From an uncultured delta proteobacterium (GTDB taxonomy: Bacteria; Desulfobacterota; RBG-13-43-22), in the NCBI GenBank assembly GCA_963790475.1, contig CAWBOS010000011.1:64001-128000 (forward strand): a stretch of DNA of 64,000 nucleotides. Direction: 5' to 3'. Below, one piece after another: positions 31,925-38,080 of this stretch; position 1 is the first letter of the stretch; each line of letters begins with the position of its first letter. Both the position numbers and the translations under genes were made by a program. The notes under the pieces are model-generated. The model made no database searches. It saw only the letters and a list, made by a program, of their open reading frames with translations, and was not told the DNA's origin.

Positions 31925-33118
31925 CTAAGGGGTCACCTCCATAAAACTTTCTAAATATTTCACCTGCCCCTTCCCGACAATCTCACTGTACGGTACGGGA
32001 ACCGTCATATGGTTCTTAATCCCATAAGTTTTTTCACCGCCGGCCCGCAAAGGAGTTTTATGAAAGCTGCGAAACTCCATGGTCCGGAGTACCTTCAGGA
32101 TCGCATCCGAATCAAGGCTTTGAGCTTTCTCAATGGCCATTAAAAGGATATGGGGTCCCATAGAATAGGCCATGTCCGTGGTTTTCATATTAGGGCATTG
32201 CTTCTCATAATATTTCTCCTGCTCCACACCCAAAGGGCTATTTTCCTCCGGGGAGACCATGATGCCCACAAACCCTTTGGAGGCTTCAACTCCGGCGATA
32301 TCCTGCCATTTTTCCAGATCACCGGGCATGGAGGTTGGATAACCGATACGCCCCTTGTACCCCAGTTCCCGCGATTGTTTGACGATCAAGGCCGCCGACC
32401 CCGGAGGCACTTTCAAATGTAAATAATCCGGATTAGACTTTAAGGATTTACTTAAGAAAGGATAAAAATCCTTTGTTCCGGGAGGAACCAAAACAAAGTC
32501 TTTTATGATCAACCCCCTTTTCTTTTCATTTTTAAGGGCTCCCTCTTTGGCAAGTTTTCCCACCAGATCATCGGTAAAAATATACAAGACACTCTTGCAG
32601 CGGAACTTCTCCCTCATCAGAGAACACAAGGCTTCGCTTCTTTCCTCGTCACTGGAGGCCACTCTGAAAAGATAAGGCCACTCCGGTTTTGGGTTCCAGG
32701 TCGGCCCTCCGATAACCGCCAATTTTTTTTCTTTGGTGGACAAGGGTGCCCAACCGGAAATCGGTTCGGCCCCGAAAGAACCCACTAAAAAATCGACTTT
32801 ATCGGTATAAAGAAGTTTTTCAGCCGCCGTCCGCCCGCCGGCGACGGTATATTTGTCATCGGCAGAGATCATTTCAATCTTGTAATTTTGTCCTTTGACC
32901 GTAATCCCCCCCCGGTCATTAAAAAATTTTTGCAGGGATTCCATAGTACACTTGGTATTCAGCCCCCACTGGGCGGCCGGTCCGGTCAGAGGGTTTATCA
33001 CCCCCAATTTGAGGATCTTACTTTCAGCCTGTACGGAGTAAACGACTGCCCACCCCAAGATAAAGGTCCCAATGAACAAACCTCCCATTACCTTCAAGAA
33101 AAACTTTTTCCCTGCCAT
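31925..33118 (-). CDS. Liv-type ABC substrate-binding protein
   Basis: Signal peptide, LGVI.PLTGPAA.WG, N.RGGI, ADD.Y, DF.P.L. Confidence 0.88.
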   Translation of the reverse strand: MAGKKFFLKVMGGLFIGTFILGWAVVYSVQAESKILKLGVINPLTGPAAQWGLNTKCTMESLQKFFNDRGGITVKGQNYKIEMISADDKYTVAGGRTAAEKLLYTDKVDFLVGSFGAEPISGWAPLSTKEKKLAVIGGPTWNPKPEWPYLFRVASSDEERSEALCSLMREKFRCKSVLYIFTDDLVGKLAKEGALKNEKKRGLIIKDFVLVPPGTKDFYPFLSKSLKSNPDYLHLKVPPGSAALIVKQSRELGYKGRIGYPTSMPGDLEKWQDIAGVEASKGFVGIMVSPEENSPLGVEQEKYYEKQCPNMKTTDMAYSMGPHILLMAIEKAQSLDSDAILKVLRTMEFRSFHKTPLRAGGEKTYGIKNHMTVPVPYSEIVGKGQVKYLESFMEVTP

Positions 33119-33401
33119 GACCCCTCCTTAGAATCTTGATATAGGTTAAGGTGTAAAAACCGAAACACTTCCCAAAAAACTGACTTTGTTTCCCCTCCAC
33201 CATAGAAAACGGCTGGGTGAAATCCAGGTTGTTCCTGATTCCATAAGGTCCGTCCTCACCGAGAAAAACGATGCAACCCTCGCTATTCAAACCGGCCGGT
33301 GATTCCTATCCCCAAGACGAAAAGCATGCTCCCGAGGTTTGAATCAAGACCTTAAAACTCACCCTTAGTAAAGTAATGAAATTGAATTGGTACCTGTAAA
33401 T

Positions 33402-33891
33402 CTATTTCCAGAGCTCGGTAACAGCCCCGGAAGGGGGAGGGGTTATCACCCATAAATTCTTGGTAACCTGGTCCCCAATCACTTCCCATCGGTGGGGAAG
33501 GGTGGAAAAGAAATGGAGGGTGTCTCCTTTTTTCAAAGGATAAACCTTCCCGTCAATTTCATAGTGTATCTCCCCCTGCAGGCAGAATATGAACTCTTCT
33601 CCTGGATGGGATTCCGGTTTGGCGGAACTCATGGTTCCTTTTTTGAGATGGGTCATCAGGGCCAGCATTTTGGCCCCCTTTAAGCGAAGGGCCAGGTATT
33701 TTATCTGCGTGGTTCCTGAGGTATTTCTAAAAACTTTTCCATTTTCTCTGGGAAGGTATTCAACGTTTTCAACATAATCGAAGGAGCCATTTTTTTCTTC
33801 TAAAAAATAGCCGATCTTTTCCTCCAAAGCATCAGCGATCTTCATCAGAACGGTTACCGTCGGGGTCATCTCACTGCGTTCCAGCTTGTGG
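33402..33891 (-). pseudogene. XRE-cupin transcriptional regulator, 3' part (interrupted)
   Basis: HKLERSEMTPTVTVL.KIA.AL then cupin H.GEEF...F.S..PH. Joins in frame to 36335..36459. Confidence 0.88.
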
Positions 33892-34052
33892 TTCAAGTAA
33901 GCCGCTGTGCGGCAGAACCGTTTCTATGTAATCCTTCCTGAAAAATCTCTTCAGAAGTCCATTCGATAGGACGCATACCGTTTAGTCCAGTATGATACTT
34001 CAAACCCCCTCCTCATAGGAAGGGGAAATCCATCCTTATAAGGAGAAGTATC

Positions 34053-34940
34053 ATGATGAACAATTGGTATGACAAAACGATCCAAGCTCTTCAACTCAAC
34101 GGTAAAGGGGAACGCACCCAGGAAGCCTACGCCCGCTCCGTCCGCATGCTCACCCAGTTTTATAACAAAACTCCTGATTCCATCAGCGAACAGGAACTTC
34201 AGGATTATTTTCTTCAACGGAAAAATGTCGATAAGTGGGCCCCCAATACCATGCGGATATGCTATTGCGGCATACGCTTCTTTTTTGAAAAAGTACTCCA
34301 GCGCAACTGGCACATCCTCGGAATCCTCCGAGCCCAAACCGAACGAAGACTCCCGGCCGTCTTGAGCGTTGAAGAAGTCCGTAAACTCCTGGCCCAGGTT
34401 AAAACCTTCCAGAACTATGCCTATCTTTCCACCGTCTACTCCTGCGGTCTGAGACTTCAGGAGGGACTCTATCTCGAAGTCTCCGATATCGATAGTGACC
34501 GGATGATGATCCATATCCACCGGGGCAAAGGCGCCAAAGATCGCTATGTCCCTCTCCCCCAATCCACTCTCAGCCTGCTCCGTCGCTATTGGGTCACCCA
34601 CCGTCATCCTGCCCTCCTTTTTCCAGCCATCGGCCGAACCAGACAAGGCGTCAAGGAAGCTAAAACGCCCATGGCCAAAAGCAGTGTCCAAGGGGCCTTC
34701 CGTCGAGCCAAGTTTGCTGCCGGAATCCACAAAAAAATGGTCTCTGTTCATACCCTCCGGCACTCTTATGCCACCCATCTGCTTGAGGCCGGCGTCAACC
34801 TTCGGGTCATCCAAAGATACATGGGCCACGGCCAATTGGAAACGACCATGGTCTATTTGCATCTCACTCAAAAAGGTCAAGAGGATGCCTGCCAGTTGAT
34901 CAATCAGGTGATGGGGGGCTTAGACCATGACCACCATTAA
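34053..34940 (+). CDS. Tyrosine recombinase with N-terminal SAM-like domain
   Basis: YSCGLR, GKGAKDR, HTLRHSYATHL, MGH, TTMVY. Confidence 0.93.
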   Translation: MMNNWYDKTIQALQLNGKGERTQEAYARSVRMLTQFYNKTPDSISEQELQDYFLQRKNVDKWAPNTMRICYCGIRFFFEKVLQRNWHILGILRAQTERRLPAVLSVEEVRKLLAQVKTFQNYAYLSTVYSCGLRLQEGLYLEVSDIDSDRMMIHIHRGKGAKDRYVPLPQSTLSLLRRYWVTHRHPALLFPAIGRTRQGVKEAKTPMAKSSVQGAFRRAKFAAGIHKKMVSVHTLRHSYATHLLEAGVNLRVIQRYMGHGQLETTMVYLHLTQKGQEDACQLINQVMGGLDHDHH

Positions 34941-36027
34941 TGAGATCTTTCGAACCTTCGGCCCCCAATACCTGGGGCGCTACGGTCAGACTATGCCTAA
35001 AATACACCGCCAGGTCATCGAGGCCATCATCGGCTGCCGTACCGAAGCCTGCGGCCTCGTCCTATACCAGTGTGAAAAATGCGGCCAGTCCCATCTGATC
35101 TATCGTTCCTGCGGCAATCGCCATTGCCCCACTTGTCAACACCATAAAACCCAACAGTGGTTGGATAAACAGATAAAGCATCAACTTCCCGGACATCATT
35201 TCATGATGACCTTTACCGTCCCCGAACAACTGCGCCGCTTTATACGGAAAAATCAGAGGGTGGCTTATTCCGCCTTGTTCAAAGCCTCCTCCGAGGCCAT
35301 CAAAAAGCTGGCTCCGGACGAAAAATACATCGGCGGTGATCTTCCGGGATTCCTCGGGGTCCTTCATACCTGGGGACGTACCTTGGAGTATCACCCCCAT
35401 ATCCATTACATCGTCCCCGGCGGAGCCCTCTCCACCACTGACGGTCTCTGGCATCCCTCAAGGATCGATTTTTATCTCCCGGTCAGAGCCCTCTCCAAAA
35501 TCTTTAAGGCCAAGTTCAAAAAGGCCATGAAAGAAGTCGGTCTCTTCGAGCAAATCCCTACTGAGGTCTGGCAGATCGACTGGAACGTCAACTCTCAAGC
35601 CGTAGGTTCCTCCGAAGCCAGCCTAAAATACCTCGCCCCTTATGTCTTCAAAGTGGCGATCTCCAATTCCCGCATCCTCAAGGTGGAAAACAACACCGTC
35701 TTCTTCCGATACACCAAACCTCATAGCCATCGGTTGAGGACTATGGCCCTCGGTTCCATGGAATTCCTCCGCCGTTTCCTTCAGCATGTCCTGCCCACCG
35801 GATTCATGAAAATCCGCTATTACGGCTTCATGAACCCCAATTGCTCGGTCCCTTTCGAAAGAATATCTACCCTCATTCAAATGGCCTATTCCTTCGTCTT
35901 GAAGATGCCCGAATATCAGCAAAGCCCTTCTCCAACTCCCATCTGTCCCAACTGCGGCGGAACCCTCAGATACCTCGTATCCTTCATCCCCGGTCTCACT
36001 CCTCAATTGACCCTGGACAGTTCTTGA
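34927..36027 (+). CDS. IS91-family transposase (Zn-binding + Y2 HUH)
   Basis: CEKC...SCGNRHCPTC, LHTWG, HPHIH, YLAPYV, HVLP.GF.KIRYYG. Confidence 0.93.
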   Translation: MTTINEIFRTFGPQYLGRYGQTMPKIHRQVIEAIIGCRTEACGLVLYQCEKCGQSHLIYRSCGNRHCPTCQHHKTQQWLDKQIKHQLPGHHFMMTFTVPEQLRRFIRKNQRVAYSALFKASSEAIKKLAPDEKYIGGDLPGFLGVLHTWGRTLEYHPHIHYIVPGGALSTTDGLWHPSRIDFYLPVRALSKIFKAKFKKAMKEVGLFEQIPTEVWQIDWNVNSQAVGSSEASLKYLAPYVFKVAISNSRILKVENNTVFFRYTKPHSHRLRTMALGSMEFLRRFLQHVLPTGFMKIRYYGFMNPNCSVPFERISTLIQMAYSFVLKMPEYQQSPSPTPICPNCGGTLRYLVSFIPGLTPQLTLDSS

Positions 36028-36334
36028 ACGGTCTTCCTAAGACCCCCTTCTTAAATCCAAAATGTCAAAGAACTAAAGCGGTAGGGACTCCTATGTCCAG
36101 AGTCCTAAAAATCGATGGGTGCTTTTATCTGATCAGTGAAAAAAGGTATTGCCGTGCTTCGTAAGGTAAGTTCTTAGTCCTTTTCCTGTTCCCTGAGTCT
36201 ATTTATAAGCTTTTTATCCTCTCCTCAGTTCGTCCCCCTTCGAACCTTTACCCTTTATAGATCGTCATTATTTATCCGGGCTTCTTGAACAATGGATTGA
36301 AACGACCTTTCAGGATCGTCTCAATCCTTATTGG

Positions 36335-36459
36335 ATAGTGGTCACTGAAACCCCTGCCTTTTCAGCCAACTGATTCAAAGACAGGTCTTTTTGTTTTCGA
36401 AGATGGGCGATCTTTCCGCCGATCGATGAAACGATTTTCTCGATTAATATTTCTTTCAT
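36335..36459 (-). pseudogene. XRE-cupin regulator, 5' part (HTH start)
   Basis: MKEILIEKIVSSIGGKIAHLRKQKDLSLNQLAEKAGVSVTT. Reconstructed gene is 204 aa. Confidence 0.85.
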
Positions 36460-36751
36460 TGGTAAACTTGATTATTTGGGATTGGCCATAAAATATAGTA
36501 AATGATTTATTAAATTATAGTTTCTCTTGTCAAGAAAAAAAATGGTCAAATTCTTTGGACAGGCTATTATAGTCCCGGGAGGAAAAGGCTTTTGATTCGC
36601 ACTGAATTTAAATTTACTTTTAATTTGAGATGGTATAAAAGAATCCAGTAGTCAGGGCCAGGGGAAAGGGCGATGTGACCCTCTTCCCGGGCCGGCTCCT
36701 TTTATTCGTTCGGATTTTTTACCTGTAATAATTGACTTTCTGGAGGTTCCT

Positions 36752-38080
36752 ATGAATGGCCGATCAGTTGAAGACGTGCTCCGTCTGGTGAAGGATAAGA
36801 ATATTAGTTTTATCCAGTTCTGGTTCACCGATATCCTGGGGCTGTTAAAAAGTTTTGCCGTAACCCCTTCGGAATTAGAGGAAGGGATGACCGAGGGCAT
36901 GGGATTTGACGGCTCCTCCATTGAAGGATTCGCCCGGATTGAAGAGTCCGACATGATCGCCAAACCGGACCCGGCCACTTTCCAAATGATTCCCTGGAGG
37001 GCCGGGGAACAACCTGTAGCCCGAATGTTATGCGATATCCTCGAACCGGATGGGACCCCTTATCCCGGCGATCCCCGGTTTGCCTTTAAACGGTTGCTGG
37101 CCAAAGCCAAGGAGAAAGGATTCACCTTATTTATCGGGCCCGAGTTGGAATACTTTTACTTCCAGGACAGTAACGATACCAATTTCCTGGACCTTGGCGG
37201 ATACTTCGATGCCCGTCCCCTCGATTTGGGTGGAGACCTGAGGCGGGAGACCATCTTCGCCCTTCAGTCCATGGGTATCAAAGTCGAATACAGCCACCAT
37301 GAGGTGGCCCCCAGCCAGCATGAAATCGACCTGCGTTACGCCGAGGGGCTTTCCATGGCCGATATGACCATGACCTACCGTCTGGTCGTCAAGGAGATTG
37401 CCCGAACCAAAGGGGTGTATGCCACCTTCATGCCCAAACCGATCTTCGGACAGAACGGCAGCGGCATGCATACCCACCAGTCTTTGTTTTTAGGAGAAAA
37501 GAATGCCTTTTTCGAACCTAGCGATCCTTTCCATCTTTCTCCCATTGCCAAATGTTATATCGCCGGGCTGATGCGACATGCCCGGGAAATGACGGCCATC
37601 AACAACCAATGGGTCAATTCCTATAAACGGCTGGTGCCCGGGTACGAGGCCCCGGTCTATGTCTCCTGGGCCCGAAGGAACCGTTCCACCATGATCCGGG
37701 TACCCATGTACAAACCGGGAAAGGAAAAGGCCACCCGCATTGAATTCCGCTCCCCCGATCCGGCCTGCAATCCCTATCTTTGTTTTGCCGTCCAACTGGC
37801 CGCCGGACTGGCCGGTATTGAAGGAAACTACCCGTTGCCCGATCCGGTGGAAGAAGATATCTTTGAAATGACCCCGGCCGAACGGGAGGGCAGAGGCATC
37901 AACTCTCTTCCCGGTAACCTTTATGCCGCTGTCGAAGAGCTTAAGAAAAGCACTCTGGTCCGGGAGGCTTTGGGGGATCACATTTTTAATAAATTCATTG
38001 CCAATAAAGAGATCGAATGGGACCACTACCGGACGCATGTCAGCCGGTATGAATTGGATAAATATCTGCCGATATTATAA
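36752..38080 (+). CDS. glnA: Glutamine synthetase type I
   Basis: FDGSSI, GPELE, HHEVAPSQHE, TFMPKP, NGSGMH, SYKRLVPGYEAP, NRS, RIEFR, NPYL. Confidence 0.95.
   Translation: MNGRSVEDVLRLVKDKNISFIQFWFTDILGLLKSFAVTPSELEEGMTEGMGFDGSSIEGFARIEESDMIAKPDPATFQMIPWRAGEQPVARMLCDILEPDGTPYPGDPRFAFKRLLAKAKEKGFTLFIGPELEYFYFQDSNDTNFLDLGGYFDARPLDLGGDLRRETIFALQSMGIKVEYSHHEVAPSQHEIDLRYAEGLSMADMTMTYRLVVKEIARTKGVYATFMPKPIFGQNGSGMHTHQSLFLGEKNAFFEPSDPFHLSPIAKCYIAGLMRHAREMTAINNQWVNSYKRLVPGYEAPVYVSWARRNRSTMIRVPMYKPGKEKATRIEFRSPDPACNPYLCFAVQLAAGLAGIEGNYPLPDPVEEDIFEMTPAEREGRGINSLPGNLYAAVEELKKSTLVREALGDHIFNKFIANKEIEWDHYRTHVSRYELDKYLPIL

Follow-up and report, generated by a model that had tools for sequence, protein, structure and literature searches.

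Background

Transposons of the IS91 family (IS91, IS801, IS1294 and a two-gene subgroup that also encodes a tyrosine recombinase) have a Y2 HUH transposase with an N-terminal zinc domain, leave no target duplication, and possess two distinct ends, each with a subterminal palindrome. Integron cassettes are non-autonomous and are moved in trans by the integron integrase IntI at an attI platform; their attC sites have a characteristic layout of AAC box, spacer, hairpin, spacer and G|TT box. The mobile element considered here shares features with both. It interrupts the gene of an XRE-cupin regulator in a 64,000-nucleotide (nt) stretch of DNA from an uncultured delta proteobacterium (Desulfobacterota, RBG-13-43-22; assembly GCA_963790475.1, contig CAWBOS010000011.1, positions 64,001 to 128,000). 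This whole stretch is referred to as the window, all positions are coordinates within it, and the element lies on its plus strand. The element is best explained as an autonomous two-gene member of the IS91 family with the behaviour of an integron cassette that mobilises itself. What the tyrosine recombinase does in two-gene IS91 elements is not accounted for by any established model, and the present data offer a concrete and testable explanation.

Like the IS91 family the element has the Y2 HUH enzyme with its zinc domain, an insertion free of target duplication, and a palindrome close to each of its two distinct ends, here 9 nt (left) and 7 nt (right) from the tips. The left end resembles oriIS (7 nt and a palindrome) and the right end terIS. 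The element differs from classical members in its target, G|WT with conserved bases 3' of the cut instead of 5'-CTTG/GTTC beside oriIS; in the pairing of its left tip with a box that lies 44 nt inward from the right tip, a pairing that a classical copy lacks; and in its preference for attC sites. With integron cassettes it shares the arrangement of its joined ends, a crossover at G|TT, secondary G|WT targets, identity at the first nucleotide and oriented insertion at the R' box of attC, and the best solved relative of its recombinase is the integron integrase IntI4. Unlike a cassette, it has its own recombinase and HUH enzyme and multiplies without an integron platform; the recombinase is devoid of the IntI insertion and scores below the cut-off of the IntI model, and the boxes are CTTGAAC/GTTCAAG with spacers of 3 and 6 nt.

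Two further kinds of element employ enzymes unlike those found here, a DEDD transposase in the IS1111-attC insertion sequences and a reverse transcriptase in the group IIC-attC introns, and neither is known to share the element's insertion at the G|TT crossover. Both are like it in having attC as the preferred target (PMC9229058, PMC3001079). The integrative elements termed SEs resemble it in their tyrosine recombinases and in the single-stranded circles that they form by copy-out (PMC9345347, PMC10214605); they differ in having several recombinase genes, and their abstracts mention no HUH enzyme, attC-like junction or attC targeting. For IS91-type elements, no description of attC targeting or of an attC-like junction was found in a literature search that did not cover subscription journals, ISfinder or TnPedia; one paper mentions in passing an IS91-like element adjoining an attC site.

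Boundaries of the element and structure of the joined ends

Scripted deletion of exactly 2443 bp produces a 204-residue open reading frame (ORF) on the minus strand that matches intact database homologs without a gap (200/204 residues identical to P0001, 196/204 to P0002); insertion was therefore precise and without target duplication. Within the regulator gene the element is flanked by G and AT: the left flank ...CTTGTGG, whose last G at 33891 is the target -1 base, is followed by the element start TTCAAGTAAGCC (33892-33903), and the right flank after 36334 reads ATAGTGG. From the window copy alone the boundary can slide over TGG, but the flanks of a second copy in the same genome, 100% identical (C10:1651178-1653625; ...CGAAATG and TTAGGCC...), reduce this ambiguity to one G. 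In a Nitrospirota genome G precedes TTCAAG in nine of ten near-identical copies and A in one (L024), while all ten end in ...TTTTTGG; thus the last G is part of the element and the base before TTCAAG derives from the target. The 13 copies of a Cloacimonadales genome lie in a repeated sequence; its unoccupied paralogs have ...ATCTTG|TTAT..., so that the joint is at G|TT. An earlier note on this DNA, written from the letters alone, had claimed that removal of the element restores the regulator gene, had described both ends, and had proposed that these join into an attC-like hairpin. The restoration is borne out, the ends were described correctly to the base, and the geometry of the proposed hairpin recurs in relatives, as follows.

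When the ends are joined by script, one long imperfect hairpin of about -20 kcal/mol results. The left repeat 33892-33903 pairs with 36279-36290, one T being bulged, so that outer ...AAC and GTT... boxes pair around an inner stem and the crossover lies at G|TT as in an attC site. The relatives were gathered from species-representative genomes (63 loci) and from metagenome contigs (80 loci), and the ends are nearly invariant across these 143 loci, the HUH proteins of which are 41-90% identical to that of the window. At the left the consensus is (G)TTCAAG-T-AAGCC and then a GC-rich palindrome; at the right it is GGGCTT-CTTGAAC, 3 nt, a hairpin whose base is GGATTGA/TCAATCC, and a tail of the type TTATTGG. 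All 62 anchored right ends have a spacer of 3 nt, and 53 of them have a 7-nt tail, most commonly TTATTGG or TTATGGG. The 7-bp box is followed by a single bulged base, which is retained as T, A or G.

Sequence changes in the boxes and the stem preserve pairing. Among 71 distinct insertions the right and left boxes are CTTGAAC/GTTCAAG in 52, GTTCAAC/GTTGAAC in 12, CTTGAAT/ATTCAAG in two and CTCGAAC/GTTCGAG in one; of the remainder two have one outer mismatch and two have CTTGAAC/ATTCAAG. Over 48 distinct right ends, 89.7% of the cells of a 13-pair stem are standard pairs, scored on a hand-written structure with four rows that carry a one-pair insertion misaligned and counted as unpaired. Compensatory changes occur at 7 of the 13 pairs (41 cells), and in 500 shuffles neither the pairing score nor the covariation score was ever as high as observed. 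RNAalifold returned no consensus for these 48 ends, the variable loops having been misaligned by MAFFT, and Rfam has no match in 33000-37000. The window hairpin itself folds with z = -4.3 (top strand) and -4.7 (bottom strand), with 0/200 shuffles as good. The attC-like hairpin of the joined ends is a conserved and covarying structure.

Table 1. Parts of the element and of the gene that it interrupts, in window coordinates
Feature	Position	Strand	Remarks
Mobile element, whole	33892..36334	+	2443 bp, TTCAAG...TTATTGG; identical second copy elsewhere in the genome; precise gene restoration
XRE-cupin regulator, C-terminal (cupin) part	33402..33891	-	PF07883 Cupin_2, 7.8e-17; colinear with intact 204-aa homologs after in-silico excision
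XRE-cupin regulator, N-terminal (helix-turn-helix) part	36335..36459	-	Target starts AT; restored protein AGVSVTTIHKLERSE agrees with homologs across the joint
Left terminal repeat TTCAAG-T-AAGCC	33892..33903	+	With the flanking G forms an R'-like box, G|TTCAAG; motif present in left ends of relatives
Left subterminal palindrome GCCGC-TGT-GCGGC	33901..33913	+	Folding z about -2; in relatives stem kept, loop variable
Tyrosine recombinase ORF, Xer/IntI-like	34053..34940	+	PF00589, 1.9e-35; PF13495, 7.5e-21
IS91-family Y2 HUH transposase ORF	34927..36027	+	PF04986, 2.8e-54; PF14319, 6.5e-29; NF033538, 373.8 bits (cut-off 125)
Internal right repeat GGGCTT-CTTGAAC (R''-like box)	36278..36290	+	44 nt inside the right tip; conserved in relatives
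Spacer AAT between box and hairpin	36291..36293	+	3 nt in 62/62 anchored right ends
Subterminal hairpin GGATTGA...TCAATCC, GGATTGAAACGACC...GGATCGTCTCAATCC (L''/L'-like)	36294..36327	+	Folding against shuffles; covariation
Tail TTATTGG	36328..36334	+	7 nt; last G is the tip base of the element, directly before the crossover

The crossover rule

At -1, G occurs in 94 and A in four of 98 distinct left flanks, and the first two target bases of the 71 distinct two-ended insertions are TT in 69 and AT in two, a count that is no independent test of the rule since the end parser demanded [T/A]T after the joint. The junctions of homologs thus fall at G|TT or G|AT, in keeping with the placement suggested in the earlier note. 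The tip base of the element and the target base before its left end agree in 70 of the 71 insertions, being G/G in 67, A/A in three and G/A in one (Fisher p = 7e-5). All three elements with an A tip (the second copy of L023, L031 and L184) have A at the left -1 position and occupy A|TT or A|AT targets; in two of them the internal box is altered to CTTGAAT, with preservation of pairing.

Both regularities have counterparts among integron integrases. IntI1 has been reported to need only the first nucleotide of GTT to be identical between partner sites, the other two positions being free to change (Frumerie et al., PMC2811028), and IntI1, 2 and 3 have been reported to insert cassettes genome-wide at 5'-GWT-3' with the cut between -1 and +1 (bioRxiv 10.1101/2022.09.11.507474). 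The element family obeys both rules. Classical IS91 is reported to be without such identity; its ter ends in CTCG, yet 41-47% of the targets are GTTC (PMC13181058, Table 2). The tetranucleotide CTTG or GTTC that abuts oriIS in the classical family is not the conserved feature here, which is G|TT or G|AT: CTTG occupies -4 to -1 in 15 of the 98 left flanks and GTTC in none, and neither CAAG nor GAAC occurs at +1 to +4 in 83 right flanks.

Two of the L loci above belong to a second lineage in Nitrospirota genomes (L023:5629-8058 and L031), 80-89% identical, in which an A:T crossover pair replaces G:C, the box is CTTGAAT and the tip is A; only ~200 bp separate one member from the main-lineage copy upstream of it. 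Another Nitrospirota locus (L049:5370-5473) has its last 53 nt tandemly duplicated, the second unit starting at TTGAAC inside the internal box with a joint G|TTGAAC, and this may be the footprint of an aberrant exchange at x|TT.

Insertion into attC sites

Outside two intragenomic bursts the right flanks are TTAGGC- or TTATGC-like and in the left flanks T at -12 and -3 and A at -9 are conserved. This pattern is explained by the rebuilt targets, many of which fold into hairpins of 59-133 nt; the closing sequences are xxxxAAC...GTTxxxx, often GCCCAAC...G|TTAGGC, and the inner stem has a bulged base (L012, L034, L065, L021, L010, L121, L124, L127, L130 and L138, among others). The element lies exactly at the G|TT of these hairpins and always in the same orientation. 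They are genuine integron attC sites, cut at the canonical G|TT crossover. A strict attC-like score was passed by 12 of 53 sites, all of them among the 31 non-burst sites, versus 17 of 224 control GTT positions; visibly attC-like targets, e.g. L010, L017 and L046, are missed by this score. One host genome holds uninterrupted attC paralogs of its occupied site, and an integron integrase above the cut-off of the IntI model TIGR02249 is present in seven of eight tested host genomes with attC-located insertions.

In 141 kb of flanks a strict attC finder gave six plus-strand and five minus-strand hits, a relaxed finder hit both strands alike and was too unspecific, and the target hairpin was repeated within the same locus in only 4 of 45 cases; complete cassette arrays were not demonstrated around most insertions by these finders and the repeat check, the contigs being short. 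Around the two copies examined in the window's own genome, no attC-like sites were found to a distance of 6 kb.

Two sets of targets other than attC are recurrent. Those of the Nitrospirota copies (L022-L030, L045) have a loose repeat in common: GGGTATTTT lies ~30 nt upstream, the sequence at the cut is ATTCAGG or ATTCAAG, and the right side ends in ...ATGGAAAC and resembles CRISPR-repeat-type sequence. The preferred Cloacimonadales target (flanks of L052-L064, L087, L093-L095) is a repeated intergenic sequence ...CATAAGATTGTATCTTG|TTAT...CCGATGGTTTGCAAC..., of which many copies are unoccupied.

The two proteins

The HUH protein has the zinc-binding N-terminal domain and Y2 HUH transposase domain of the IS91 family (PF04986, PF14319, NF033538) and is ~23-25% identical to classical IS91 transposases. 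Its gene starts 14 nt before the end of the recombinase gene, and the two are kept together: of the 111 loci with room for a recombinase gene before the HUH gene, 97 have one immediately upstream of it, and the other 14 are decayed or truncated copies. The nearest plasmid-borne relatives (33-41% identity) also have the recombinase, and the gene pair is found in Herpetosiphon and Roseobacter plasmid records; in these distant two-gene relatives no clear right end was identified.

The recombinase scores 175.8 bits with TIGR02249, below its cut-off of 265, and 180.7 bits with the archaeal XerA model of NCBIfam. Its best solved relative in the PDB is the Vibrio integron integrase IntI4 (2A3V, 118 bits), ahead of XerA and XerD at 107 and 83 bits, and the alignment with 2A3V falls into two pieces (residues 15-172 and 207-277 against 15-173 and 242-311 of the chain). 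It has neither of the two marks of IntI, the I2 segment and a score above the model cut-off, and so is not an integron integrase itself, though it appears on sequence to be close kin. A published classification places the recombinases borne by IS91 and IS3 elements in an "integron-like" subgroup, said to comprise the closest homologues of IntI that lack its insertion (bioRxiv 10.1101/542381). As to membership of the present protein in that subgroup, the PDB ranking favours IntI4, while the XerA model slightly outscores the IntI model.

Among the relatives, the Herpetosiphon plasmid locus L097:3863-4066 has a truncated recombinase and a ~102-bp tandem duplication in the right-end region. In L011 the distance from the left-end motif (475) to the right end (5371) is ~4.9 kb, twice that of a usual element, and TC takes the place of TT after the right end; cargo within the element or the nesting of two elements may account for this.

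Multiplication without an integron integrase

No integron integrase of the window's genome exceeds the TIGR02249 cut-off; the proteins there that match this model best are the element's own recombinases. The element is present as two full copies of identical sequence, besides which the genome has a miniature copy of 402 bp, a solo right end and a partial copy. The Nitrospirota and Cloacimonadales genomes, with 10 and 13 near-identical copies, are likewise without an IntI above the cut-off. In all three the junctions follow the same rule, at sites that are not attC, and multiplication in such genomes argues that the element moves by its own genes.

The miniature copy (L004, C10:140858-141259) consists of ~245 nt of left end and ~100 nt of right end between the flanks ...GGCTTG| and |TTAGGCC, its right tail extended to TTAGTTAGTGG through a short duplication. 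The solo right end (L005, C12:796917-796983) comprises 67 bp with box, hairpin and tail and is followed by TTAGCTT, and the partial copy (L003, C6:609743-610439, minus strand) is 85% identical, has lost everything but the right end and the 3' part of the HUH gene, and is followed by TTGGGTG. Among Logan contigs of four runs compared with window positions 33500-36700, none joins the right to the left end and none bridges the empty site, rare forms being invisible in contigs; the contigs break at 33891 and 36334, with other flanks.

Proposed mechanism and alternatives

The HUH transposase would make a circular single-stranded copy of the element by rolling-circle copy-out, and joining of the ends in the circle would rebuild a single site of attC layout, CTTGAAC, 3 nt, hairpin, 6 nt and G|TTCAAG, in which the boxes pair. 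The element's Xer/IntI-like recombinase would exchange strands between this site and a G|WT target, preferably the R' box of a folded attC and otherwise a short secondary site, e.g. the G|AT of the XRE-cupin gene, and integration would be precise and without duplication. A copy at a non-attC site lacks an upstream partner for excision by the recombinase and so would need the HUH copy-out route. That the element is integrated at its folded attC-like junction by its own IntI-like recombinase, the HUH enzyme supplying the circle, we rate at about one chance in two (probability roughly 0.5). Of the autonomous cassette put forward in the earlier note, the integron-like structure, targets and rules and the multiplication without IntI hold, whereas the division of labour, i.e. 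which enzyme cuts where, the substrate's single-stranded form and the strand used, is what we infer from them.

A number of observations weigh against integration by the recombinase at a folded junction, including several that favour the HUH enzyme acting alone. The canonical attC boxes follow the consensus RYYYAAC/GTTRRRY, and canonical attC sites have extrahelical bases in the inner stem; the boxes CTTGAAC/GTTCAAG lie outside this consensus, and canonical extrahelical bases were not found in the 62 right ends, 27 of which have an A.C mismatch at stem position 8, in addition to the single-base bulge outside the box. The joined ends fold slightly better as the bottom strand in 23 of 41 elements and as the top strand in 17 (Wilcoxon p = 0.15), so neither strand is favoured by folding energy. 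Identity of tip and target is broken by a sole insertion, L024, and the end parser permitted only G or A as the tip base before [T/A]T, with exclusion of L011. Between its two aligned pieces the recombinase is ~34 residues shorter than IntI4 2A3V, the IntI-specific segment (I2 region) being missing as the earlier note had suspected, and the I2 helix has been credited with the shift of the integron integrases to single-stranded recombination (PMC7790495).

It is possible, although on the unlikely side, that transposition is of the IS91 type with the HUH enzyme alone, the Y2 transposase cutting at x|TTCAAG and TTATTGG|, circularising one strand and inserting it into single-stranded targets that mimic ter; the recombinase would then have an accessory part, as a regulator or an Orf121-like termination factor, as a resolver of multimers, or as an excisionase for attC-located copies. 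Such mimicry (hairpin, short spacer, G|) would account for the hits in attC, the 3' half of which could be mistaken for the element's own end, and the missing I2 region counts in favour of this reading. The HUH catalytic motifs HPHIH and Y235/Y239 (Y-x3-Y) are invariant in alignment A1, and IS91 TnpA alone has been reported to insert a single-stranded circle (PMC13181058). The active strand of a classical IS91 copy, located in an E. coli plasmid by comparison of many records, reads CTTG|, 7 nt, palindrome, body, palindrome and 7 nt CTACTCG|, and the top strand of the element parallels it with xTTG|, 9 nt, palindrome, body, hairpin and 7 nt TTATTGG|. A modest enrichment of xTTG in the left flanks (37 of 98) also recalls the classical CTTG target. 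The earlier note had named insertion beside GTTC or CTTG independently of the recombinase, or an unconserved junction hairpin, as evidence against its proposal, and the outcome is divided: the hairpin is conserved, and of the 98 left flanks only 15 have exact CTTG before the element and none has GTTC. Against transposition by the HUH enzyme alone are the conserved target bases, TT or AT 3' of the cut and one base 5' of it, which are unlike the 4-nt 5' motif of the classical family, and the absence of GTTC from the left flanks and of CAAG and GAAC from the right flanks, the latter being the classical position beside the transposase-distal end. Classical IS91 needs no match of tip and target, a match that here includes the three A-tip elements, and in the classical copy no repeat near the other end pairs with the tip (best match 8/14). 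Retention of the recombinase in most loci and the coincidence of the cut in attC with the IntI crossover would also be left unexplained.

It is highly unlikely, in our estimate, that the recombinase excises and integrates a double-stranded circle in the manner of phage integrases and those of integrative and conjugative elements, the HUH enzyme serving only for replication (relaxase- or Rep-like) or mobilisation. Recombinases without the I2 helix would be expected to act on double-stranded sites (PMC7790495), attG sites have been reported to recombine as double-stranded DNA (bioRxiv 10.1101/2022.09.11.507474), and some Nitrospirota targets are palindromic around the cut, e.g. TTCAAG|TTGAA. However, the copy in the XRE gene, which is not at an attC, has no second full site at its left end and thus no partner for conservative excision; the boxes stand 44 nt apart around a covarying hairpin, an arrangement that is sensible only if the DNA folds; and the junction has no inverted arms around a 6-8-bp overlap. 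Very improbable indeed is an ordinary integron cassette with mobility genes as cargo, moved passively by the IntI of its host through the attC-like site. The occurrence of IntI in most tested genomes with attC-located copies, and junction rules like those reported for IntI, would suit it, but the three genomes that have 2, 10 and 13 near-identical copies and no IntI above the cut-off, the deviation of boxes and extrahelical bases from canonical attC, and the conservation of the two genes and the ends as a unit do not.

Neighbouring genes

On one side of the interrupted regulator a divergent 442-residue ORF (36752-38080) resembles glutamine synthetase, and on the other a 397-residue ORF (31925-33118) resembles a periplasmic solute-binding protein, both putative and named from their translations only. 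The insertion may have derepressed or silenced nitrogen-related genes.

Implications

If integration by the element's own recombinase at a folded junction is correct, recombination of single-stranded hairpins would not be exclusive to the integron integrases and the I2 helix would be unnecessary for it, which would bear on the origin of integrons. By analogy with RAG/Transib and Cas1/casposons, two-gene IS91 elements might be transposon relatives, possibly even ancestors, of integrons: a recombinase without I2 would already have acted on the folded hairpin of joined ends at AAC/GTT, attC and IntI would have been domesticated from such ends and such a recombinase, and the elements of today would be "selfish cassettes" that parasitise the arrays. 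We consider this doubtful. The elements would also constitute a new class of autonomous cassettes that enter attC sites and are able to disrupt, split or reshuffle integron arrays, and that reach integron-free genomes as well, where they inactivate genes such as that of the XRE-cupin regulator. From a conserved site of ~70 nt and two small genes, a compact tool for programmable insertion could be developed. The family may thus connect two well-known systems of bacterial gene mobility, integrons and IS91-type transposition.

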